Source: Candidatus Saccharimonadia bacterium (lineage in GTDB: Bacteria; Patescibacteriota; Saccharimonadia; UBA4664). From it: a stretch of 48,964 nt of DNA. The position numbers and the translations under genes are program-made. Under the pieces are notes generated by a model. That model saw only the letters and a list, made by a program, of their open reading frames with translations. It made no database searches and had not been told where the DNA came from. Location of the stretch: contig JBGTMQ010000008.1 of NCBI GenBank assembly GCA_041743505.1, positions 135,183 through 184,146 on the forward strand. The letters run 5' to 3'. Of this stretch, positions 4,719-17,750 are shown one piece after another; positions within the stretch are counted from its first letter, which is position 1, and each line of letters opens with the position of its first letter.

Positions 4719-6137
4719 ATGCTAATGGTTTGTCCAAATTGCTCATCCACCGACATCATCACCGTACAAGACCAACGGTTCTGCATTAGTTGCGGCCAAA
4801 TCTTGTCCGACATCAAGCCTGCCGCCGCGCCGTCAAAGCCCGTTGCCGCATCATCAAAGTTGACCGCCATTCCACCGAAATCGACCACCCTAGTAGAATC
4901 AAATGTCACGATCAGTGCCAACCCGGCAGCCAAACGTCGAAAACCAGGCCGTCCCAAGGCCGGCCGTTTGGACGCACCCCAGCCGGAAGCTGTATTGCCC
5001 GAAACAAACCCACCAGCTTCATCGGATATAGTCGTTCCAGTAGCAGCCACCGCTCCGCGTATCGCTCGCAGCACCGGACGGCGGCTCAGCGATATCGCGA
5101 CCACCAAACCCCGGGCCACACCAGCAACCAAGCCGGCACCGGACTCAAAGGTTATAGCGAAACCAATTCCGCTCCGCTCAGAACCGCTGCCATATGGCAC
5201 TATCGAAAGCGCTAGCCTGCACGAGCGTTTCCGACTCCGAACCATTGTCTGGACGATTTGGCCGGCCGTTTTACTGGCTGTAGTTGCCGGAGCTATAGCC
5301 TATCTGCTGGCAGGCGACCAACCCGGACAAGCCTGGACCGCCACCCAACAAGCCGGTTGGCCGGTCTGGGGCGAGTTAATCCTGGTACTGCTATTATTCT
5401 ACGTCGGCCGCAATATCGGCAGCGCCGCCATTGCCTATGGCATTGCCCGGCGGGCTGACCACCGGCCCCTCCAGCCTGCCCATCAACTAAGTGCCAGCCT
5501 TAACAGTTTCCTCAGCCGCCTGGGCTTCGACGCTATGATGACACTGCTTCAGGCAACCGCAGCAGCACTCATAATTACGCTCGTGATCATTGGCGGCGCC
5601 AACTGGCCGGTACCGGAACTCGTCCAGGTTATAGCCCTGTTCATAGCCTATTTGATACTGGGCTATCTGCTAACCGGCCTTGGCTTAACCCAAGGGTTGG
5701 GGCATGTAGCGTTAACCCTGGGCAACCTGTCAATTTGGCAAGCCTTTACCCTGGGGTGGAACTTCTTCCGGCGCCATTTTGAAATGGTCGGATTTAAAAT
5801 CCTCAGTCTTATTGTTGAGTTGCTTCTAGCTTTACCATTATTTGCTGCAGTTGTAGCCCTGGTACTCTACCTGCCTCCTGAGTTGACCTGGTTTGCCGCC
5901 CTCAGCGCCATAATCCTGACGACTACCGGAGGCGCTCTGGTAGGTGCCGGAACAGCCGTCTGGTGGCAAGCTGCTTACCGGGCTCTAGTCCATCGCAGCC
6001 GGCCTCAGCAAGCCCACAAGCTGTTATCCGGCCGTCAGCCACAACCAACCCAACAAGGCGCCGCCGTGGCTGTAGCAGTCATCATTACCATTCTCGCAGG
6101 CCTGGCCAGTATCTGGCCCTGGGTAACGATCGGCTAG
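4719..6137 (+). CDS. zinc-ribbon / Pro-rich / polytopic membrane protein
   Basis: CPNC...CISC at the N-terminus, KRRKPGRPK motif, Pro/Ala-rich linker, many C-terminal TM helices. Confidence 0.8.
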   Translation: MLMVCPNCSSTDIITVQDQRFCISCGQILSDIKPAAAPSKPVAASSKLTAIPPKSTTLVESNVTISANPAAKRRKPGRPKAGRLDAPQPEAVLPETNPPASSDIVVPVAATAPRIARSTGRRLSDIATTKPRATPATKPAPDSKVIAKPIPLRSEPLPYGTIESASLHERFRLRTIVWTIWPAVLLAVVAGAIAYLLAGDQPGQAWTATQQAGWPVWGELILVLLLFYVGRNIGSAAIAYGIARRADHRPLQPAHQLSASLNSFLSRLGFDAMMTLLQATAAALIITLVIIGGANWPVPELVQVIALFIAYLILGYLLTGLGLTQGLGHVALTLGNLSIWQAFTLGWNFFRRHFEMVGFKILSLIVELLLALPLFAAVVALVLYLPPELTWFAALSAIILTTTGGALVGAGTAVWWQAAYRALVHRSRPQQAHKLLSGRQPQPTQQGAAVAVAVIITILAGLASIWPWVTIG

Positions 6138-6268: not shown

Positions 6269-6460
6269 ATGAAGACATTTTTTAATTACCTGGCAGCCTC
6301 CCGGGTCGAACTGACCAAGGTCACATGGCCAACCCGTCGTCAAACTGCACGTTTGACGGTAATTGTAATTATCTTCTCGCTCATTTTTGCCGCTGTCTTA
6401 GGTACACTCGACTATCTCTTCGCGTTGCTATTAGAAAACATAATTGTTAGAGGATCATAA
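6269..6460 (+). CDS. secE: preprotein translocase subunit SecE
   Basis: ELTKVTWPTR motif plus one TM helix, directly upstream of nusG. Confidence 0.95.
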   Translation: MKTFFNYLAASRVELTKVTWPTRRQTARLTVIVIIFSLIFAAVLGTLDYLFALLLENIIVRGS

Positions 6461-7002
6461 TGTCCGAAGAACGTAAGCTAAAAGCACATTGGTACGTCAT
6501 TCATACTTATTCCGGTTATGAAGACCGCGTAGCCGAAAACCTGCGCCAGCGCATCGACACTATGCACATGCAGGACAAAATTTTCGACGTCATCGTACCC
6601 AAAGAGAACCAGATCGAAATCAAAAACGGCCGCCGCCGCATCGTCGAACGCCGCATTTTCCCAGGCTACGTCCTGGTACAAATGGACGTCACCGAGGATT
6701 CTTGGTACGTCGTCCGTAACACCCCCAATGTCACCGGCTTTGTCGGCTCGGGCACAACTCCTACGCCAATTTCCGAGGATGAAGTCAAACACATCCAAAA
6801 GCGCATGGGTGTCGAAGAACCCAAGTTTAAGATCGACTTTATGGCCGGCGAAGCTGTCAACATTACCGACGGTCCATTCAAAGGCTTCGACGGCATGGTA
6901 TCCGAAATTGACGAAAATAAGGGCAAGATCAAAGTCCTAGTCAACATGTTTGGCCGCGAAACCCCGGTTGAGCTCGACAGCCTTCAAGTCAAGAAAATCT
7001 AA
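6460..7002 (+). CDS. nusG: transcription termination/antitermination factor NusG
   Basis: WYVIHTYSGYE, FPGYVLV, VRNTPNVTGFVG, KOW motif GPFKGFDG, MFGRETPVEL. Confidence 0.98.
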   Translation: MSEERKLKAHWYVIHTYSGYEDRVAENLRQRIDTMHMQDKIFDVIVPKENQIEIKNGRRRIVERRIFPGYVLVQMDVTEDSWYVVRNTPNVTGFVGSGTTPTPISEDEVKHIQKRMGVEEPKFKIDFMAGEAVNITDGPFKGFDGMVSEIDENKGKIKVLVNMFGRETPVELDSLQVKKI

Positions 7003-7021
7003 AACATTATTACAGGAATTT

Positions 7022-7058
7022 CGGTCCGGTCACACAATATTACTGTGTGACCGGACCG
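7022..7058 (-). terminator. 15-bp perfect hairpin between convergent nusG and cassette A
   Basis: CGGTCCGGTCACACA / TGTGTGACCGGACCG; the paralogous hairpin at 7661-7700 has compensatory changes. Confidence 0.7.
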
Positions 7059-7075: not shown

Positions 7076-7402
7076 TTAGTGAAAACCACCATGTCCGCTG
7101 CTGCACCAGCCCATAACGACCGGCGAGCCATCAAGCATGAACCGCCAGGTAGCAGCTTGTTCGTCGCTCACCTGATCGGCCGGGACAACCTCAGTCACCT
7201 GGACGCGGGCTTCCTCGTCAGTGACCTCAAGCAGAGCTTCGTCGAGAGCAACCTCAAAATGGCTGTGCAGCACCTGCACAGCCAAAACGTCGGTCAAGCC
7301 CTCGTCTGCGAGAAAGGCCCCCACCTTCTCCAAAGCCGCATCCAGCTCCGGTCCACGCCGGACCTCGCGGATGTGAGGTGCGGCCCTCAATGCGGTTGTC
7401 AT
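7076..7402 (-). CDS. hypothetical protein, copy A (LHSHF motif, C-terminal Cys/His tail)
   Basis: SD GGAGAGG; frame conserved in paralog 7726..8058. Confidence 0.85.
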   Translation of the reverse strand: MTTALRAAPHIREVRRGPELDAALEKVGAFLADEGLTDVLAVQVLHSHFEVALDEALLEVTDEEARVQVTEVVPADQVSDEQAATWRFMLDGSPVVMGWCSSGHGGFH

Positions 7403-7511
7403 ACTGTTTCCTCTCCGTAATGCTCAGGACTACATTGTCCCAGCGCCCCAGTTGATGCAAGACTGTTTCCAAGAGCGGCATGCGGCCACTCTTATCATTG
7501 CACCGACTGTT
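7403..7511 (-). ncRNA. candidate structured cis-regulatory 5' leader, copy A
   Basis: stems conserved relative to copy B through compensatory and G-U changes; lies between a TATACT -10 box and the SD. Confidence 0.65.
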
Positions 7512-7539
7512 AGTATACCAACCTTTCATCTATTGCCAA
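7512..7539 (-). promoter_or_regulatory. promoter of cassette A
   Basis: TTGGCA-16-TATACT on the minus strand; copy B has TTGGTA-16-TATACT at 8167-8194. Confidence 0.6.
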
Positions 7540-7586
7540 CGTCCATCTTCACTACTCGCAAACGCAGCCTTATGACTAATGTTTTG

Positions 7587-7646
7587 CAACATGTTTGGCC
7601 ACGAGACCCCAATTGAACTCGACAGCCTTCAGGTGAAAAGGTCTAA
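7587..7646 (+). pseudogene. nusG: duplicated 3' fragment of nusG
   Basis: encodes NMFGHETPIELDSLQVK..., aligns to 6942-7002 with a 1-nt deletion. Confidence 0.9.
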
Positions 7647-7660
7647 CGGGCAACTAAATA

Positions 7661-7700
7661 CCGGTCCAACCACACTATTGTTGCAGTGTAGTTGGACCGG
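7661..7700 (-). terminator. hairpin downstream of cassette B
   Basis: CCGGTCCAACCACACT / AGTGTAGTTGGACCGG; the single mismatch is a G-U pair on the minus strand. Confidence 0.7.
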
Positions 7701-7725
7701 GTGGTGTCGAGAGTAGTGCAGACCA

Positions 7726-8058
7726 TCAATGTCTGGTTATTCCCTCGGGGTTAGTGGTGCAATGACCCATGACAACCGGCCGGCCATCGGACCCGAACCG
7801 CCAAGTGGCGGCCTGCTCGTCGCTGACCTTAGTAATAGGAACAACCCGGGTCACCTGGACGCGAGCGTCCTCGTCAGTAACCTCAAGCAGTGTCTCGCCG
7901 GCCGCAACAGGGAAGTGGCTGTGCAGCACCTGCACAGCCAAAACGTCGGTCAAGCCCTCGTCTGCGAGAAAGGCCCCCACCTTCTCCAAAGCCGCATCCA
8001 GCTCCGGTCCACGCCGGACCTCACGGATGTGAGGTGCGGCCCTCAGTGCAGTTGTCAT
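7726..8058 (-). CDS. hypothetical protein, copy B
   Basis: first 49 aa identical to copy A; same SD. Confidence 0.85.
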   Translation of the reverse strand: MTTALRAAPHIREVRRGPELDAALEKVGAFLADEGLTDVLAVQVLHSHFPVAAGETLLEVTDEDARVQVTRVVPITKVSDEQAATWRFGSDGRPVVMGHCTTNPEGITRH

Positions 8059-8166
8059 ACTATTTCCTCTCCGTAGTGCGCAGGACTACATTGTCTCAGC
8101 GCCTGATCGATACAAGATTGTTTCTAAGCGCAGCATCCAACTGCGCTTATCATTGCATCGACTGTT
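8059..8166 (-). ncRNA. candidate structured cis-regulatory 5' leader, copy B
   Basis: covaries with copy A. Confidence 0.65.
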
Positions 8167-8295
8167 AGTATATCAACCATCCCTTGAATACCAACAGTCA
8201 TACGAGTATCCCCTAATGTCATAAAGCTAACCTTACTTTTATTACTGTGCTTGAAATCTCTTCGTCAAACTTCGGACAATAGCTTAACCTCGTCT

Positions 8296-8730
8296 CTAAT
8301 CGCCAAAAATAACTTCGACTAACTTAGCTTTATCATAAGAAGGGTTCATATTGAGCTTCAAAAACTCATTTTTAGTAAACCACCTCCATTCTGCAACATG
8401 GGCAGTTTTCTTAAGCAAGTCTTCTGGCAGCGACACTTTGAAGAATAAGTTCATCCGTGGAATAGCATTCACTACATTTCCAATGTTGTAATATGCAATC
8501 TGGAAGTCAGATGAAACTTCTTTGGCTGGTACACCAAGCTCCTCCTCTATTTCACGAGCCAAGGATGACTCAACTGTTTCACCATGACCTACTCCACCGC
8601 CAGGAAACGCCCACCACATGTCTGAGATTTCTTTAACCAATAGTACTTTGTCGTTTTGAACAATCAACACCCTTATTGCGACACGATATAGGCAATCGTC
8701 GATGTCGTATAATCGTGGATCTATTTGCAT
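8296..8730 (-). CDS. NUDIX hydrolase
   Basis: Nudix box GGGVGHGETVESSLAREIEEELG. Confidence 0.92.
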   Translation of the reverse strand: MQIDPRLYDIDDCLYRVAIRVLIVQNDKVLLVKEISDMWWAFPGGGVGHGETVESSLAREIEEELGVPAKEVSSDFQIAYYNIGNVVNAIPRMNLFFKVSLPEDLLKKTAHVAEWRWFTKNEFLKLNMNPSYDKAKLVEVIFGD

Positions 8731-8906: not shown

Positions 8907-9344
8907 ATGGCAGTCGCCAAGCCCAAACCAGTAAAAGCCAATGTAAAGTTCCGCCTAGCTGCAGGCAAAGCCACTCCAGCGCCGCCAGTCGGCTCAATTT
9001 TGGGCGCCCAGGGCGTCAACATGATGGAGTTCGTCAACGCCTTCAATGAGCAAACCCGCGAGCTAGGCGACGTTAGGCTAGCCGTTAAGGTCCGCATTTT
9101 CGAGGACCGCACCTTCACCTTTACCTTCAAGGGCGACAATACCGCCACACTCATCCGCAAAGCCGCCGGTCTCGACAAAGGCTCAGGCGTACCCAACAAG
9201 ACCAAGGTCGGCAAACTCACTAAGGCCCAGATTCGCGAGATTGCCGAAGTTAAAGCCAAGGACATGAATGCCAATACCCCGGAAGCCGCCGAGAGCATCG
9301 TATCTGGCCAGGCACGCTCAATGGGCATTGAAGTAGTCGATTAA
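8907..9344 (+). CDS. rplK: 50S ribosomal protein L11
   Basis: AGKATPAPPVG..LG, GVNMMEF, ARSMGIEV. Confidence 0.98.
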   Translation: MAVAKPKPVKANVKFRLAAGKATPAPPVGSILGAQGVNMMEFVNAFNEQTRELGDVRLAVKVRIFEDRTFTFTFKGDNTATLIRKAAGLDKGSGVPNKTKVGKLTKAQIREIAEVKAKDMNANTPEAAESIVSGQARSMGIEVVD

Positions 9345-9394: not shown

Positions 9395-10390
9395 ATGGCA
9401 GAGAATAAAAAGCGCGAAGAAATCATCGCCGAAGAAGAAACCCAAGACGAAATCGCCGAGGTTCAAGAAGACCAGGATGAGGTAGAACTACCCCAAGAGG
9501 TCGCCCAGGGTGGCGAAAAGTCCACCACATTAGCTAAAGCCGGCAAGCGTAGCTCCAAAGCCGTCCGCGAGATTGAGGAAGAAGAAGCCCGCCAGGCCGC
9601 CAAAGAAGAACGCGCTGCCATCGAAGAGACTGCCGAGTCCGGTCCTAAGCCACCTCGCCGCATCATGCCAAATCCAATGCATCAGCACGGCAAAAAGTAC
9701 CGTGAGGCGCTCAAGCTAGTTGACCGCACCAAGCTGCACGGCCTAGATGAAGCCTTGGAGCTAGCCGCCAAGACCGCTACCACCAAGTTTGATAGCTCAG
9801 TCGAGATTCACGTCAACCTGGGTGTCGACCCGCGCCAGGCAGACCAAATGGTCCGCGCCAGCGTAGTATTGCCTCACGGCACCGGCAAGACCTTGCGTGT
9901 AGCCGTCTTCGCCGATGGCAAAGCCGCCGAAGACGCCAAAACAGCCGGCGCCGACCTTATCGGCACCGACAAGCTGCTAGCCGACATTGAAGCCGGCAAA
10001 CTGGCTTTCGACATACTCATCGCTACCCCCGACAAAATGGCCACACTTGGTAAAGTCGCCAAGATCCTCGGGCCGCGCGGGCTCATGCCCAACCCCAAAA
10101 GCGGCACCGTCACCCCTGACACCGCCAAGGCCGTCAAAGAAGCCAAAGCCGGCAAGATCGAGTTCCGTATCGACAAGCAAGGTATTTTACATCAGGCCGT
10201 CGGCAAAGTTAGCTTTAAGCCAGAAAACCTGCGCGACAATGCCGCCGCCTTCCTAAATGCCGTCCTCAAGGCCAAGCCAAACTCTACCAAAGGTACCTAC
10301 GTTAAAGCCGTAACCGTTACTACCTCCATGGGTCCTGGTATCAAAGTTGACGCCGCCGCAACCACTAGCGAGCTGTCCACCAAGAAATAA
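9395..10390 (+). CDS. rplA: 50S ribosomal protein L1 with long acidic N-terminal extension
   Basis: LGVDPRQADQMVR, LPHGTGK, LGPRGLMPNPKSGTVT, TSMGPG. Confidence 0.97.
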   Translation: MAENKKREEIIAEEETQDEIAEVQEDQDEVELPQEVAQGGEKSTTLAKAGKRSSKAVREIEEEEARQAAKEERAAIEETAESGPKPPRRIMPNPMHQHGKKYREALKLVDRTKLHGLDEALELAAKTATTKFDSSVEIHVNLGVDPRQADQMVRASVVLPHGTGKTLRVAVFADGKAAEDAKTAGADLIGTDKLLADIEAGKLAFDILIATPDKMATLGKVAKILGPRGLMPNPKSGTVTPDTAKAVKEAKAGKIEFRIDKQGILHQAVGKVSFKPENLRDNAAAFLNAVLKAKPNSTKGTYVKAVTVTTSMGPGIKVDAAATTSELSTKK

Positions 10391-17536: not shown

Positions 17537-17607
17537 AACTATTTGGCAGTACGCCGTCTCAATCAACCTTGACGCATCAGCTTATATCAGCTATCATAAT
17601 TCAAGTT

Positions 17608-17730
17608 CACCGAAGACAGTGGCAGCTCGTACCGAGCTTAATATGCCACCGAGGCGATTTACGCTGGCCAACAACCCGCGCAAAAACCCCGAACTGTCTC
17701 TCGCAAGCGTGAACCGAGAGATTTTTTAAA
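17608..17730 (+). promoter_or_regulatory. ribosomal protein L10 leader
   Basis: CCGAAGACAGTGGC...TAATATGCCACCGAGG upstream of rplJ, following a TTGACG-17-TATCAT promoter; 3' boundary approximate. Confidence 0.8.
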
Positions 17731-17750
17731 TTTAAGAGAAGGGTAATGAC

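Follow-up and report, generated by a model that had tools for sequence, protein, structure and literature searches.

A covarying hairpin at the predicted 5' end of two tandem paralogous mRNAs of a Candidatus Saccharimonadia bacterium

Stem-loops at the 5' end of the mRNA have been described as stabilising the ompA and papA messages of Escherichia coli and the aprE message of Bacillus subtilis, work that is named in the reference list of PMC3997798, and the parts of that paper dealing with mRNA decay state that the pyrophosphohydrolase RppH of B. subtilis requires unpaired 5' nucleotides, as does 5'-end-dependent decay (PMC3997798). As a case to compare with these systems, we considered a hairpin of 57 nucleotides (nt) in the leaders of two paralogous minus-strand genes, copy A and copy B, of Candidatus Saccharimonadia bacterium (NCBI GenBank assembly GCA_041743505.1, contig JBGTMQ010000008.1, positions 135,183 to 184,146 of the forward strand); the whole stretch of 48,964 nt that was analysed is called the window, and positions are counted from its first letter. 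The hairpin in the sense RNA is real and has been kept by selection, and the reading that we tentatively favour, with a probability of roughly 0.45, is that of a constitutively folded 5'-terminal stem-loop with an effect on the fate of the mRNA. The likeness to the ompA, papA and aprE stem-loops is one of functional kind and not of homologous family: in both cases a stable stem-loop stands at the very 5' end (a predicted one here), with an accessible ribosome-binding site downstream, and the host possesses a 5'-end-dependent nuclease (here RNase J); the structure here is kept rather than the sequence of the stem. By contrast with these systems, the hairpin studied here is long (57 nt, 22 pairs), contains a conserved asymmetric internal loop of 7 nt, is followed by a second hairpin and has a 5' end that is predicted.

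Each leader, folded alone, gives the same 57-nt hairpin, which consists, in this order, of a stem P1 of 10 pairs, a bulge of one nt, a stem P2a of 3 pairs, an internal loop of 7 nt that lies on the 3' side only, a stem P2b of 9 pairs and a terminal loop of 5 nt that differs between the copies. An earlier note on this DNA had described a leader of about 105 nt in front of both genes, and we found its positions and letters to be correct. The two genes and the elements of the hairpins are the following:

7076-7402, minus strand: copy A gene, 108 amino acids
7726-8058, minus strand: copy B gene, 110 amino acids, 82% identical to copy A
7451-7507, minus strand: 5' hairpin of leader A, -22.6 kcal/mol
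7507-7498 pairing with 7460-7451, minus strand: P1 of leader A
7496-7494 pairing with 7463-7461, minus strand: P2a of leader A
7493-7485 pairing with 7479-7471, minus strand: P2b of leader A
7470-7464, minus strand: internal loop of leader A, GGAAACA
7484-7480, minus strand: terminal loop of leader A, CGCAU
8106-8162, minus strand: 5' hairpin of leader B, -26.2 kcal/mol
8162-8153 pairing with 8115-8106, minus strand: P1 of leader B
8151-8149 pairing with 8118-8116, minus strand: P2a of leader B
8148-8140 pairing with 8134-8126, minus strand: P2b of leader B
8125-8119, minus strand: internal loop of leader B, AGAAACA

The prediction for 55 and 70 C is still this hairpin. In either copy, three G-U pairs turn into C.A mismatches on the opposite strand, and the reverse complement folds 6-8 kcal/mol more weakly than the sense RNA (-16.4 and -18.1 against -22.6 and -26.2 kcal/mol), which agrees with the earlier observation that the wobble pairs work on the minus strand only. 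As the antisense folds less well in both copies, the folded molecule is the sense RNA.

The two hairpins differ at 14 of their 57 columns, by 11 transitions and 3 transversions, and pairing is kept at all 22 pairs in copy B and at 21 of the 22 in copy A. Two pairs have changed on both sides, six have changed on one side by way of G-U, 13 never vary, and the remaining one (columns 16/68) is paired as C-G in copy B but mismatched as C.A in copy A. All nine pairs of P2b are kept, as had been noticed before, through double changes from A-U to C-G and from G-C to A-U and through two wobble swaps, from U-G to C-G and from C-G to U-G. The further statement that the enclosing stem (P1 and P2a together, 13 pairs) keeps its pairing is upheld by four one-sided changes that pass through G-U, but is a little generous for copy A, which carries the C.A mismatch there. 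When 14 substitutions with the same 11:3 split of transitions and transversions were placed at random in the same 57 columns (200,000 trials in each direction), the 22 pairs were kept in 47 trials on the way from A to B, and at least 21 pairs in 1,137 trials on the way from B to A. This simulation is the only meaningful statistic, with the caveat that the structure was derived from the same two sequences; a column-shuffle control is powerless with two rows (125/500). That one of the most diverged portions of the leader still pairs fully is the real signal. Two stretches outside the stems, GAAACA (columns 52-57) and GACAAUGUAGUCCUG (columns 82-96), are the same in both copies, again as first reported. 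The surroundings of the internal loop (columns 19-30 and 48-63) contain 2 differences in 28 columns, against 12 in 29 for the rest of the hairpin (Fisher p = 0.005, for a partition that was chosen after viewing the data).

What covariation between two paralogs can show may be judged from the strong hairpins that follow the genes:

7021-7058, minus strand: 3' hairpin downstream of copy A, shared back to back with nusG, -33 kcal/mol, z-score -6.8
7661-7700, minus strand: 3' hairpin after copy B, terminator-like, with compensatory changes relative to copy A

These two 3' hairpins (-33 and -31.7 kcal/mol, z-scores about -6.7) keep 15-17 pairs by means of several compensatory changes, for example GG/CC to AA/UU, and are a useful positive control for the comparison between paralogs. 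As they covary just as clearly as the 5' hairpins, covariation between two paralogs proves a functional hairpin and not a riboswitch.

Upstream of each leader, a promoter-like site stands next to the hairpin:

7512-7539, minus strand: promoter-like site of copy A, TTGGCA, 16-nt spacer, TG-extended TATACT, 10/12 matches
8167-8194, minus strand: promoter-like site of copy B, TTGGTA, 16-nt spacer, TG-extended TATACT, 9/12 matches

Both sites share the consensus TTGGNA-16-TGnTATACT, lie at an equal distance to the hairpin and are the best such sites on their strand; a scan of both strands gave seven promoter-like sites in the region, against a mean of 1.5 after shuffling. The -10 boxes end at 7512 and 8167 and P1 begins at 7507 and 8162, and everything between the -10 box and the base of P1 is identical in both copies. 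From these sites, transcription is predicted to start on the first nucleotides of P1, at about 7507-7504 and 8162-8159, and given the usual -10 spacing, at the same distance in both copies, the hairpin would start at the 5' end of the transcript.

Between the 5' hairpin and the start codon, each leader contains a second predicted hairpin, P3, and the Shine-Dalgarno (SD) sequence:

7422-7446, minus strand: P3 hairpin of leader A, AAUGUA loop, -10.3 kcal/mol
8078-8102, minus strand: P3 hairpin of leader B, -10.4 kcal/mol
7400-7416, minus strand: SD GGAGAGG (7416-7410), spacer and ATG (7402-7400) of copy A, SD unpaired 0.68-0.74
8056-8072, minus strand: SD (8072-8066), spacer and ATG (8058-8056) of copy B, SD unpaired 0.63-0.96

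The lower stem of P3 has a different register in each copy, and since both changes in P3 break a pair in any common register, P3 is plausible without support from covariation. Six folds were made for the SD, reaching from the predicted start to the ATG or having 30 or 60 nt of coding sequence added, and in all six (6/6) the mean unpaired probability of GGAGAGG was 0.63-0.96. The earlier note had proposed a translational switch responsive to a ligand or protein, in which UGUAGU could alternatively pair with AYUACG. Such a helix can indeed form six pairs, one of which changes from G-U to G-C between the copies, but it is worth only -1.1 and -3.4 kcal/mol; it cannot form together with P3 (-10.3 and -10.4 kcal/mol), and of the SD it covers no more than the first G. 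A scan of both strands gave no terminator-like or U-tract terminator site in either leader. With an SD that is mostly unpaired, a weak alternative helix and no terminator in the leader, the proposed switch is not supported, and the predicted structures contain no expression platform, neither a terminator nor a helix that sequesters the SD. As the first part of the leader to be transcribed, and a very stable one, the 5' hairpin faces no downstream sequence able to compete with it.

Four other devices were considered for these leaders and rejected. An RNA thermometer of the ROSE or fourU type does not agree with an SD that is unpaired in the predicted minimum-energy structures at 37, 55 and 70 C. 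Capture of the SD by the pyrimidine-rich 3' strand of P1 was obtained only after deletion of the 5' strand, in registers that differ between the copies, and cannot outcompete the hairpin. As to leader-peptide attenuation, inspection by eye shows that the small open reading frame (ORF) beginning within the hairpin is 22 codons long in copy A but 9 in copy B and lacks an SD; a similar inspection of the two sequences for a kink-turn, a pseudoknot or loop-loop contacts gave nothing beyond 3 invariant pairs.

What we infer for these mRNAs, as to the transcription start, a protective role and any recognition, is the following. The first 57 nt of each transcript would fold into a long, very stable stem-loop with an asymmetric 7-nt internal loop, whose first nucleotide coincides with the predicted transcription start or is no more than about 3 nt away; this stem-loop would shield the 5' end of the mRNA from decay that depends on that end, the ribosome-binding site would stay open, and the sequence around the internal loop, being more conserved than the rest of the hairpin, may additionally be recognised by some factor. 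An SD predicted to be mostly unpaired fits constitutive translation. The genome (1.67 Mb, 98.5% complete) has, as judged from profile scores, the 5'-end-dependent decay nuclease RNase J (567 bits, for a cut-off of 400) and also RNase Y (624 bits, above the curated cut-off), and RNase E/G was not found in it. These nucleases, together with the requirement for an unpaired 5' end and the precedents of ompA, papA and aprE, fit a protective stem. Several points weigh against such a stem. The position of the transcription start is itself a prediction from promoter-like sites, and in copy B only there is a weaker site, TTGATA-16-AATGAT (9/12 matches), from which the start would fall inside the hairpin, in P2b, although the covariation of P1 argues against a start there. 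For protection alone, a stem could do without a conserved internal loop, but the uneven distribution of the differences (2/28 against 12/29) points to specific recognition by a protein or ligand. P3 and the conserved 3' part of the leader are left unexplained by protection, and the comparison involves two related sequences only, with gene conversion acting between them.

This gene conversion is apparent from the uneven divergence of the two units, and in particular from one tract:

7261-7365, identical to 7917-8021, minus strand: 105 nt with 0 differences, probably gene conversion

The units differ by 30-50% in the 3' untranslated part, by 20-40% in the second half of the gene, at 0/105 nt from 7365 to 7261, by about 10% from there onward to 7440 and by 20-27% per 30-nt window across the hairpin, and divergence is low again at the promoter. 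Codons 13-47 of the paralogs show no difference whatsoever; among codons 50-100, 16 have synonymous changes only and 13 have changes of the amino acid. Because selection on the protein cannot remove synonymous changes, the identical tract is probably the result of recent gene conversion between the copies. The invariant GACAAUGUAGUCCUG sits at the shoulder of this tract, and with two sequences the invariance of the unpaired stretches is no more than chance or gene conversion gives, so that it provides no evidence of a ligand pocket. Both leaders were also present, with 0 differences, in separate contigs of an independent hot-spring metagenome assembly made from two runs, possibly from the source sample; this assembly breaks at the identical 105-nt repeat, and copies A and B are linked by one of its contigs (7337-7945). 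Altogether, three DNA runs from one hot-spring study contain the stretch, and the assembled contigs have no variant inside the hairpins; the third run spans just 7889-8084 of copy B, and its 26 leader bases have no listed difference.

Using Rfam 15, we obtained no family on the leaders at the gathering score or at E <= 10, in keeping with the statement of the earlier note that no known riboswitch class was recognised. Over the whole window, only a tRNA and an L10 leader reached the gathering score, both away from the leaders, and between 7000 and 8400 there were three weak matches at E <= 10 (two microRNA models on the 3' palindrome and one small nucleolar RNA model), none of them on the leaders. 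A covariance model built from the two leaders matches only those two in its own genome; it gave no match in 150 relatives (with stricter filters), at four loci that encode distant homologs of the protein (where the best hit, E 0.43, was not upstream of the gene) or at five nusG loci of the same family. In metagenome contigs, a pattern for the RNA motif matched two loci (L009 and L010), which contain the same unrelated stretch without the hairpin and which we read as chance; a pattern for the core motif gave 0 matches in viral contigs, and blastn of unit A gave no match against plasmids or against phages. A literature search, at the level of search listings and of passages from PMC3997798, returned no description of this hairpin motif. 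All the evidence accordingly comes from two paralogs in one hot-spring genome.

The paralogs encode small acidic proteins, with isoelectric points of 4.5 (copy A) and 5.4 and net charges of -12 and -5. Pfam and NCBIfam contain no family for them, and a protein atlas gave only unnamed clusters with scores <= 0.86. Among 5.8 billion clusters, there are three close relatives besides the two copies, and a profile search recovered 325 cluster representatives at E <= 0.001, many of them of about 200 amino acids with two tandem copies of the domain, so that what is a pair of genes here is elsewhere a single fused protein. Residues H46, H48, E55 and E59 are invariant and C100 is nearly invariant. An AlphaFold model with a predicted local distance difference test score of 91 had 0 Foldseek matches in the PDB at E <= 0.001; none of the 219 matches of a protein pattern in metagenome contigs was a relative, and the protein was found in 0/60 relatives and in 0/400 genomes sampled across the phylum. 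The family is uncharacterised, with a confidently predicted fold that has no match among the solved structures.

The two genes have the following surroundings, which include a third gene on the minus strand and a remnant of nusG:

6269-6460, plus strand: secE
6460-7002, plus strand: nusG
about 7587-7645, plus strand: duplicated remnant of the nusG 3' end, between the two units, ending the repeat unit of about 655 nt
8296-8730, minus strand: NUDIX hydrolase gene
8907-9344, plus strand: rplK
9395-10390, plus strand: rplA

Between nusG and rplK there are thus three minus-strand genes, the two paralogs and the NUDIX hydrolase gene. The paralogs belong to a tandem repeat whose period is about 655 nt and whose units each consist of a promoter-like site, a leader, a gene and a strong 3' hairpin, and the best explanation is that copy A and copy B are separate transcription units, each with its own promoter, leader of about 105 nt, gene and 3' hairpin. 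An ORF at 7579-7716 reads ...NMFGHETPIELDSLQVK..., which is the nusG 3' remnant and delimits the duplication; as the unit of copy B ends with this remnant, the repeat arose by plain tandem duplication of a segment reaching into nusG. The G+C content is 61% in the paralog genes, against 51% in the window, and the repeat unit was probably acquired horizontally and duplicated afterwards.

Some further observations concern the neighbourhood. The NUDIX hydrolase gene (8296-8730), directly upstream of copy B, has a G+C content of 40.7%, compared with 61% for the paralogs. A relative from the same family (G004, locus L016) has, after nusG, a gene with weak likeness to Peptidase_S51 and a DUF1905/OmdA gene in place of rplK or the cassette; with other genes after nusG in the one relative examined, the nusG-rplK junction may vary in that family. 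The L10 leader RF00557 is found at 17592-17737 on the plus strand (48.8 bits, gathering score 44), about 7 kb downstream of the end of rplA at 10390, and rplKA and rplJL seem to be split by inserted genes here too. On the other side of secE, an ORF of 472 amino acids (4719-6137, plus strand) has an N-terminal CxxC...CxxC, a linker rich in Pro and Ala and a hydrophobic C-terminal half, and no Pfam family at E <= 0.001.

Apart from protection of the 5' end, the next most likely account, with a clearly smaller chance of being right, is that some regulator acting in trans (a protein or a small RNA) binds the internal-loop region (GCAAUGAUAAG opposite CUURGAAACARUCUUG) and co-regulates both paralogs through stability or translation. 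This would agree with a core near the internal loop that is conserved (2/28 against 12/29 differences) between distal and proximal stems that vary with compensation, and with the presence of the same element on two separately transcribed paralogs. A precedent is the autoregulation of RNase E through the hairpin hp2 of the rne 5' untranslated region, which, according to the passages of PMC3997798 that describe it, is likewise a leader hairpin, is recognised via an internal loop and acts on the fate of the mRNA (PMC3997798); unlike rne, the present leaders have no match in sequence or Rfam, and RNase E/G was not found in this genome. Moreover, a candidate binder was not identified, the acidic nature of the encoded proteins makes autoregulation by direct RNA binding unlikely, about 35 nt separate the hairpin from an open SD downstream, and the conserved core was delimited post hoc.

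More doubtful is a new hairpin-type riboswitch, in which the internal loop, possibly together with the P3 loop, would bind a small molecule or ion connected with the role of the downstream His/Glu/Cys-bearing proteins and alter translation or stability. Aptamers that consist of a hairpin with an internal loop exist in the THF-II/folE, xanthine/NMT1 and Li+/nhaA-I riboswitches, and these share with the present element an extended hairpin in a 5' leader, conserved internal-loop nucleotides and covarying stems. In favour of this, the stems covary around a conserved internal loop, no known RNA family matches, and the invariant H46, H48, E55 and E59 and nearly invariant C100 of the downstream proteins suggest a metal or small-ligand site. 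By contrast with the described hairpin-type riboswitches, the leaders have no Rfam match up to E 10, no terminator and no helix sequestering the SD, the RNA is known from one genome, and no gene function hints at a ligand. An open SD (0.63-0.96), an alternative helix of -1.1 and -3.4 kcal/mol facing a P3 of -10.3 and -10.4 kcal/mol, and a hairpin of -22.6 and -26.2 kcal/mol that is predicted to form unaided, at 70 C too, all speak against switching, as do invariant single strands that adjoin a gene-conversion tract and an RNA that occurs in 0/150 relatives and is not upstream of the gene in 4/4 distant homologs. Slightly less likely still is the specific proposal that the conserved internal loop (RGAAACA facing GAUAAG), perhaps docked onto the invariant AAUGUA loop of P3, forms the aptamer of a novel, very rare class of riboswitch, one that acts on mRNA stability, not on access to the SD, and controls the small-protein family. 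We also think it improbable that the hairpin has no present function and is a leftover of the duplicated unit, maintained by luck or by partial gene conversion: there are two sequences only, gene conversion is demonstrably active in this repeat and the formal shuffle control is powerless (125/500), but the hairpin belongs to the most diverged leader columns (20-27% per 30-nt window) and so was not recently homogenised, random substitution keeps all pairs in just 47/200,000 trials, and the direction of the G-U changes is strand-specific. Least credible of all is an element acting at the level of DNA, for example an operator palindrome or an attC-like integron recombination site. The inverted repeat does adjoin the promoter, and the earlier note spoke of 'cassettes', but the three G-U pairs per copy are C.A mismatches in the opposite strand, 37 nt separate the arms, the ends of the arms do not, by eye, fit the attC core motifs, and the repeat unit with its nusG tail is a plain tandem duplication.

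As for what these leaders mean more generally, old tandem paralogs can be used as a two-sequence test of covariation, a test that flags ordinary hairpins of the terminator type equally well. If ligand sensing were true, the leaders would offer a way into the function of a protein family that is so far uncharacterised. If the hairpin is instead the protective stem favoured here, or a recognition stem, it would be an ordinary kind of cis element, found in a little-studied lineage with small genomes.

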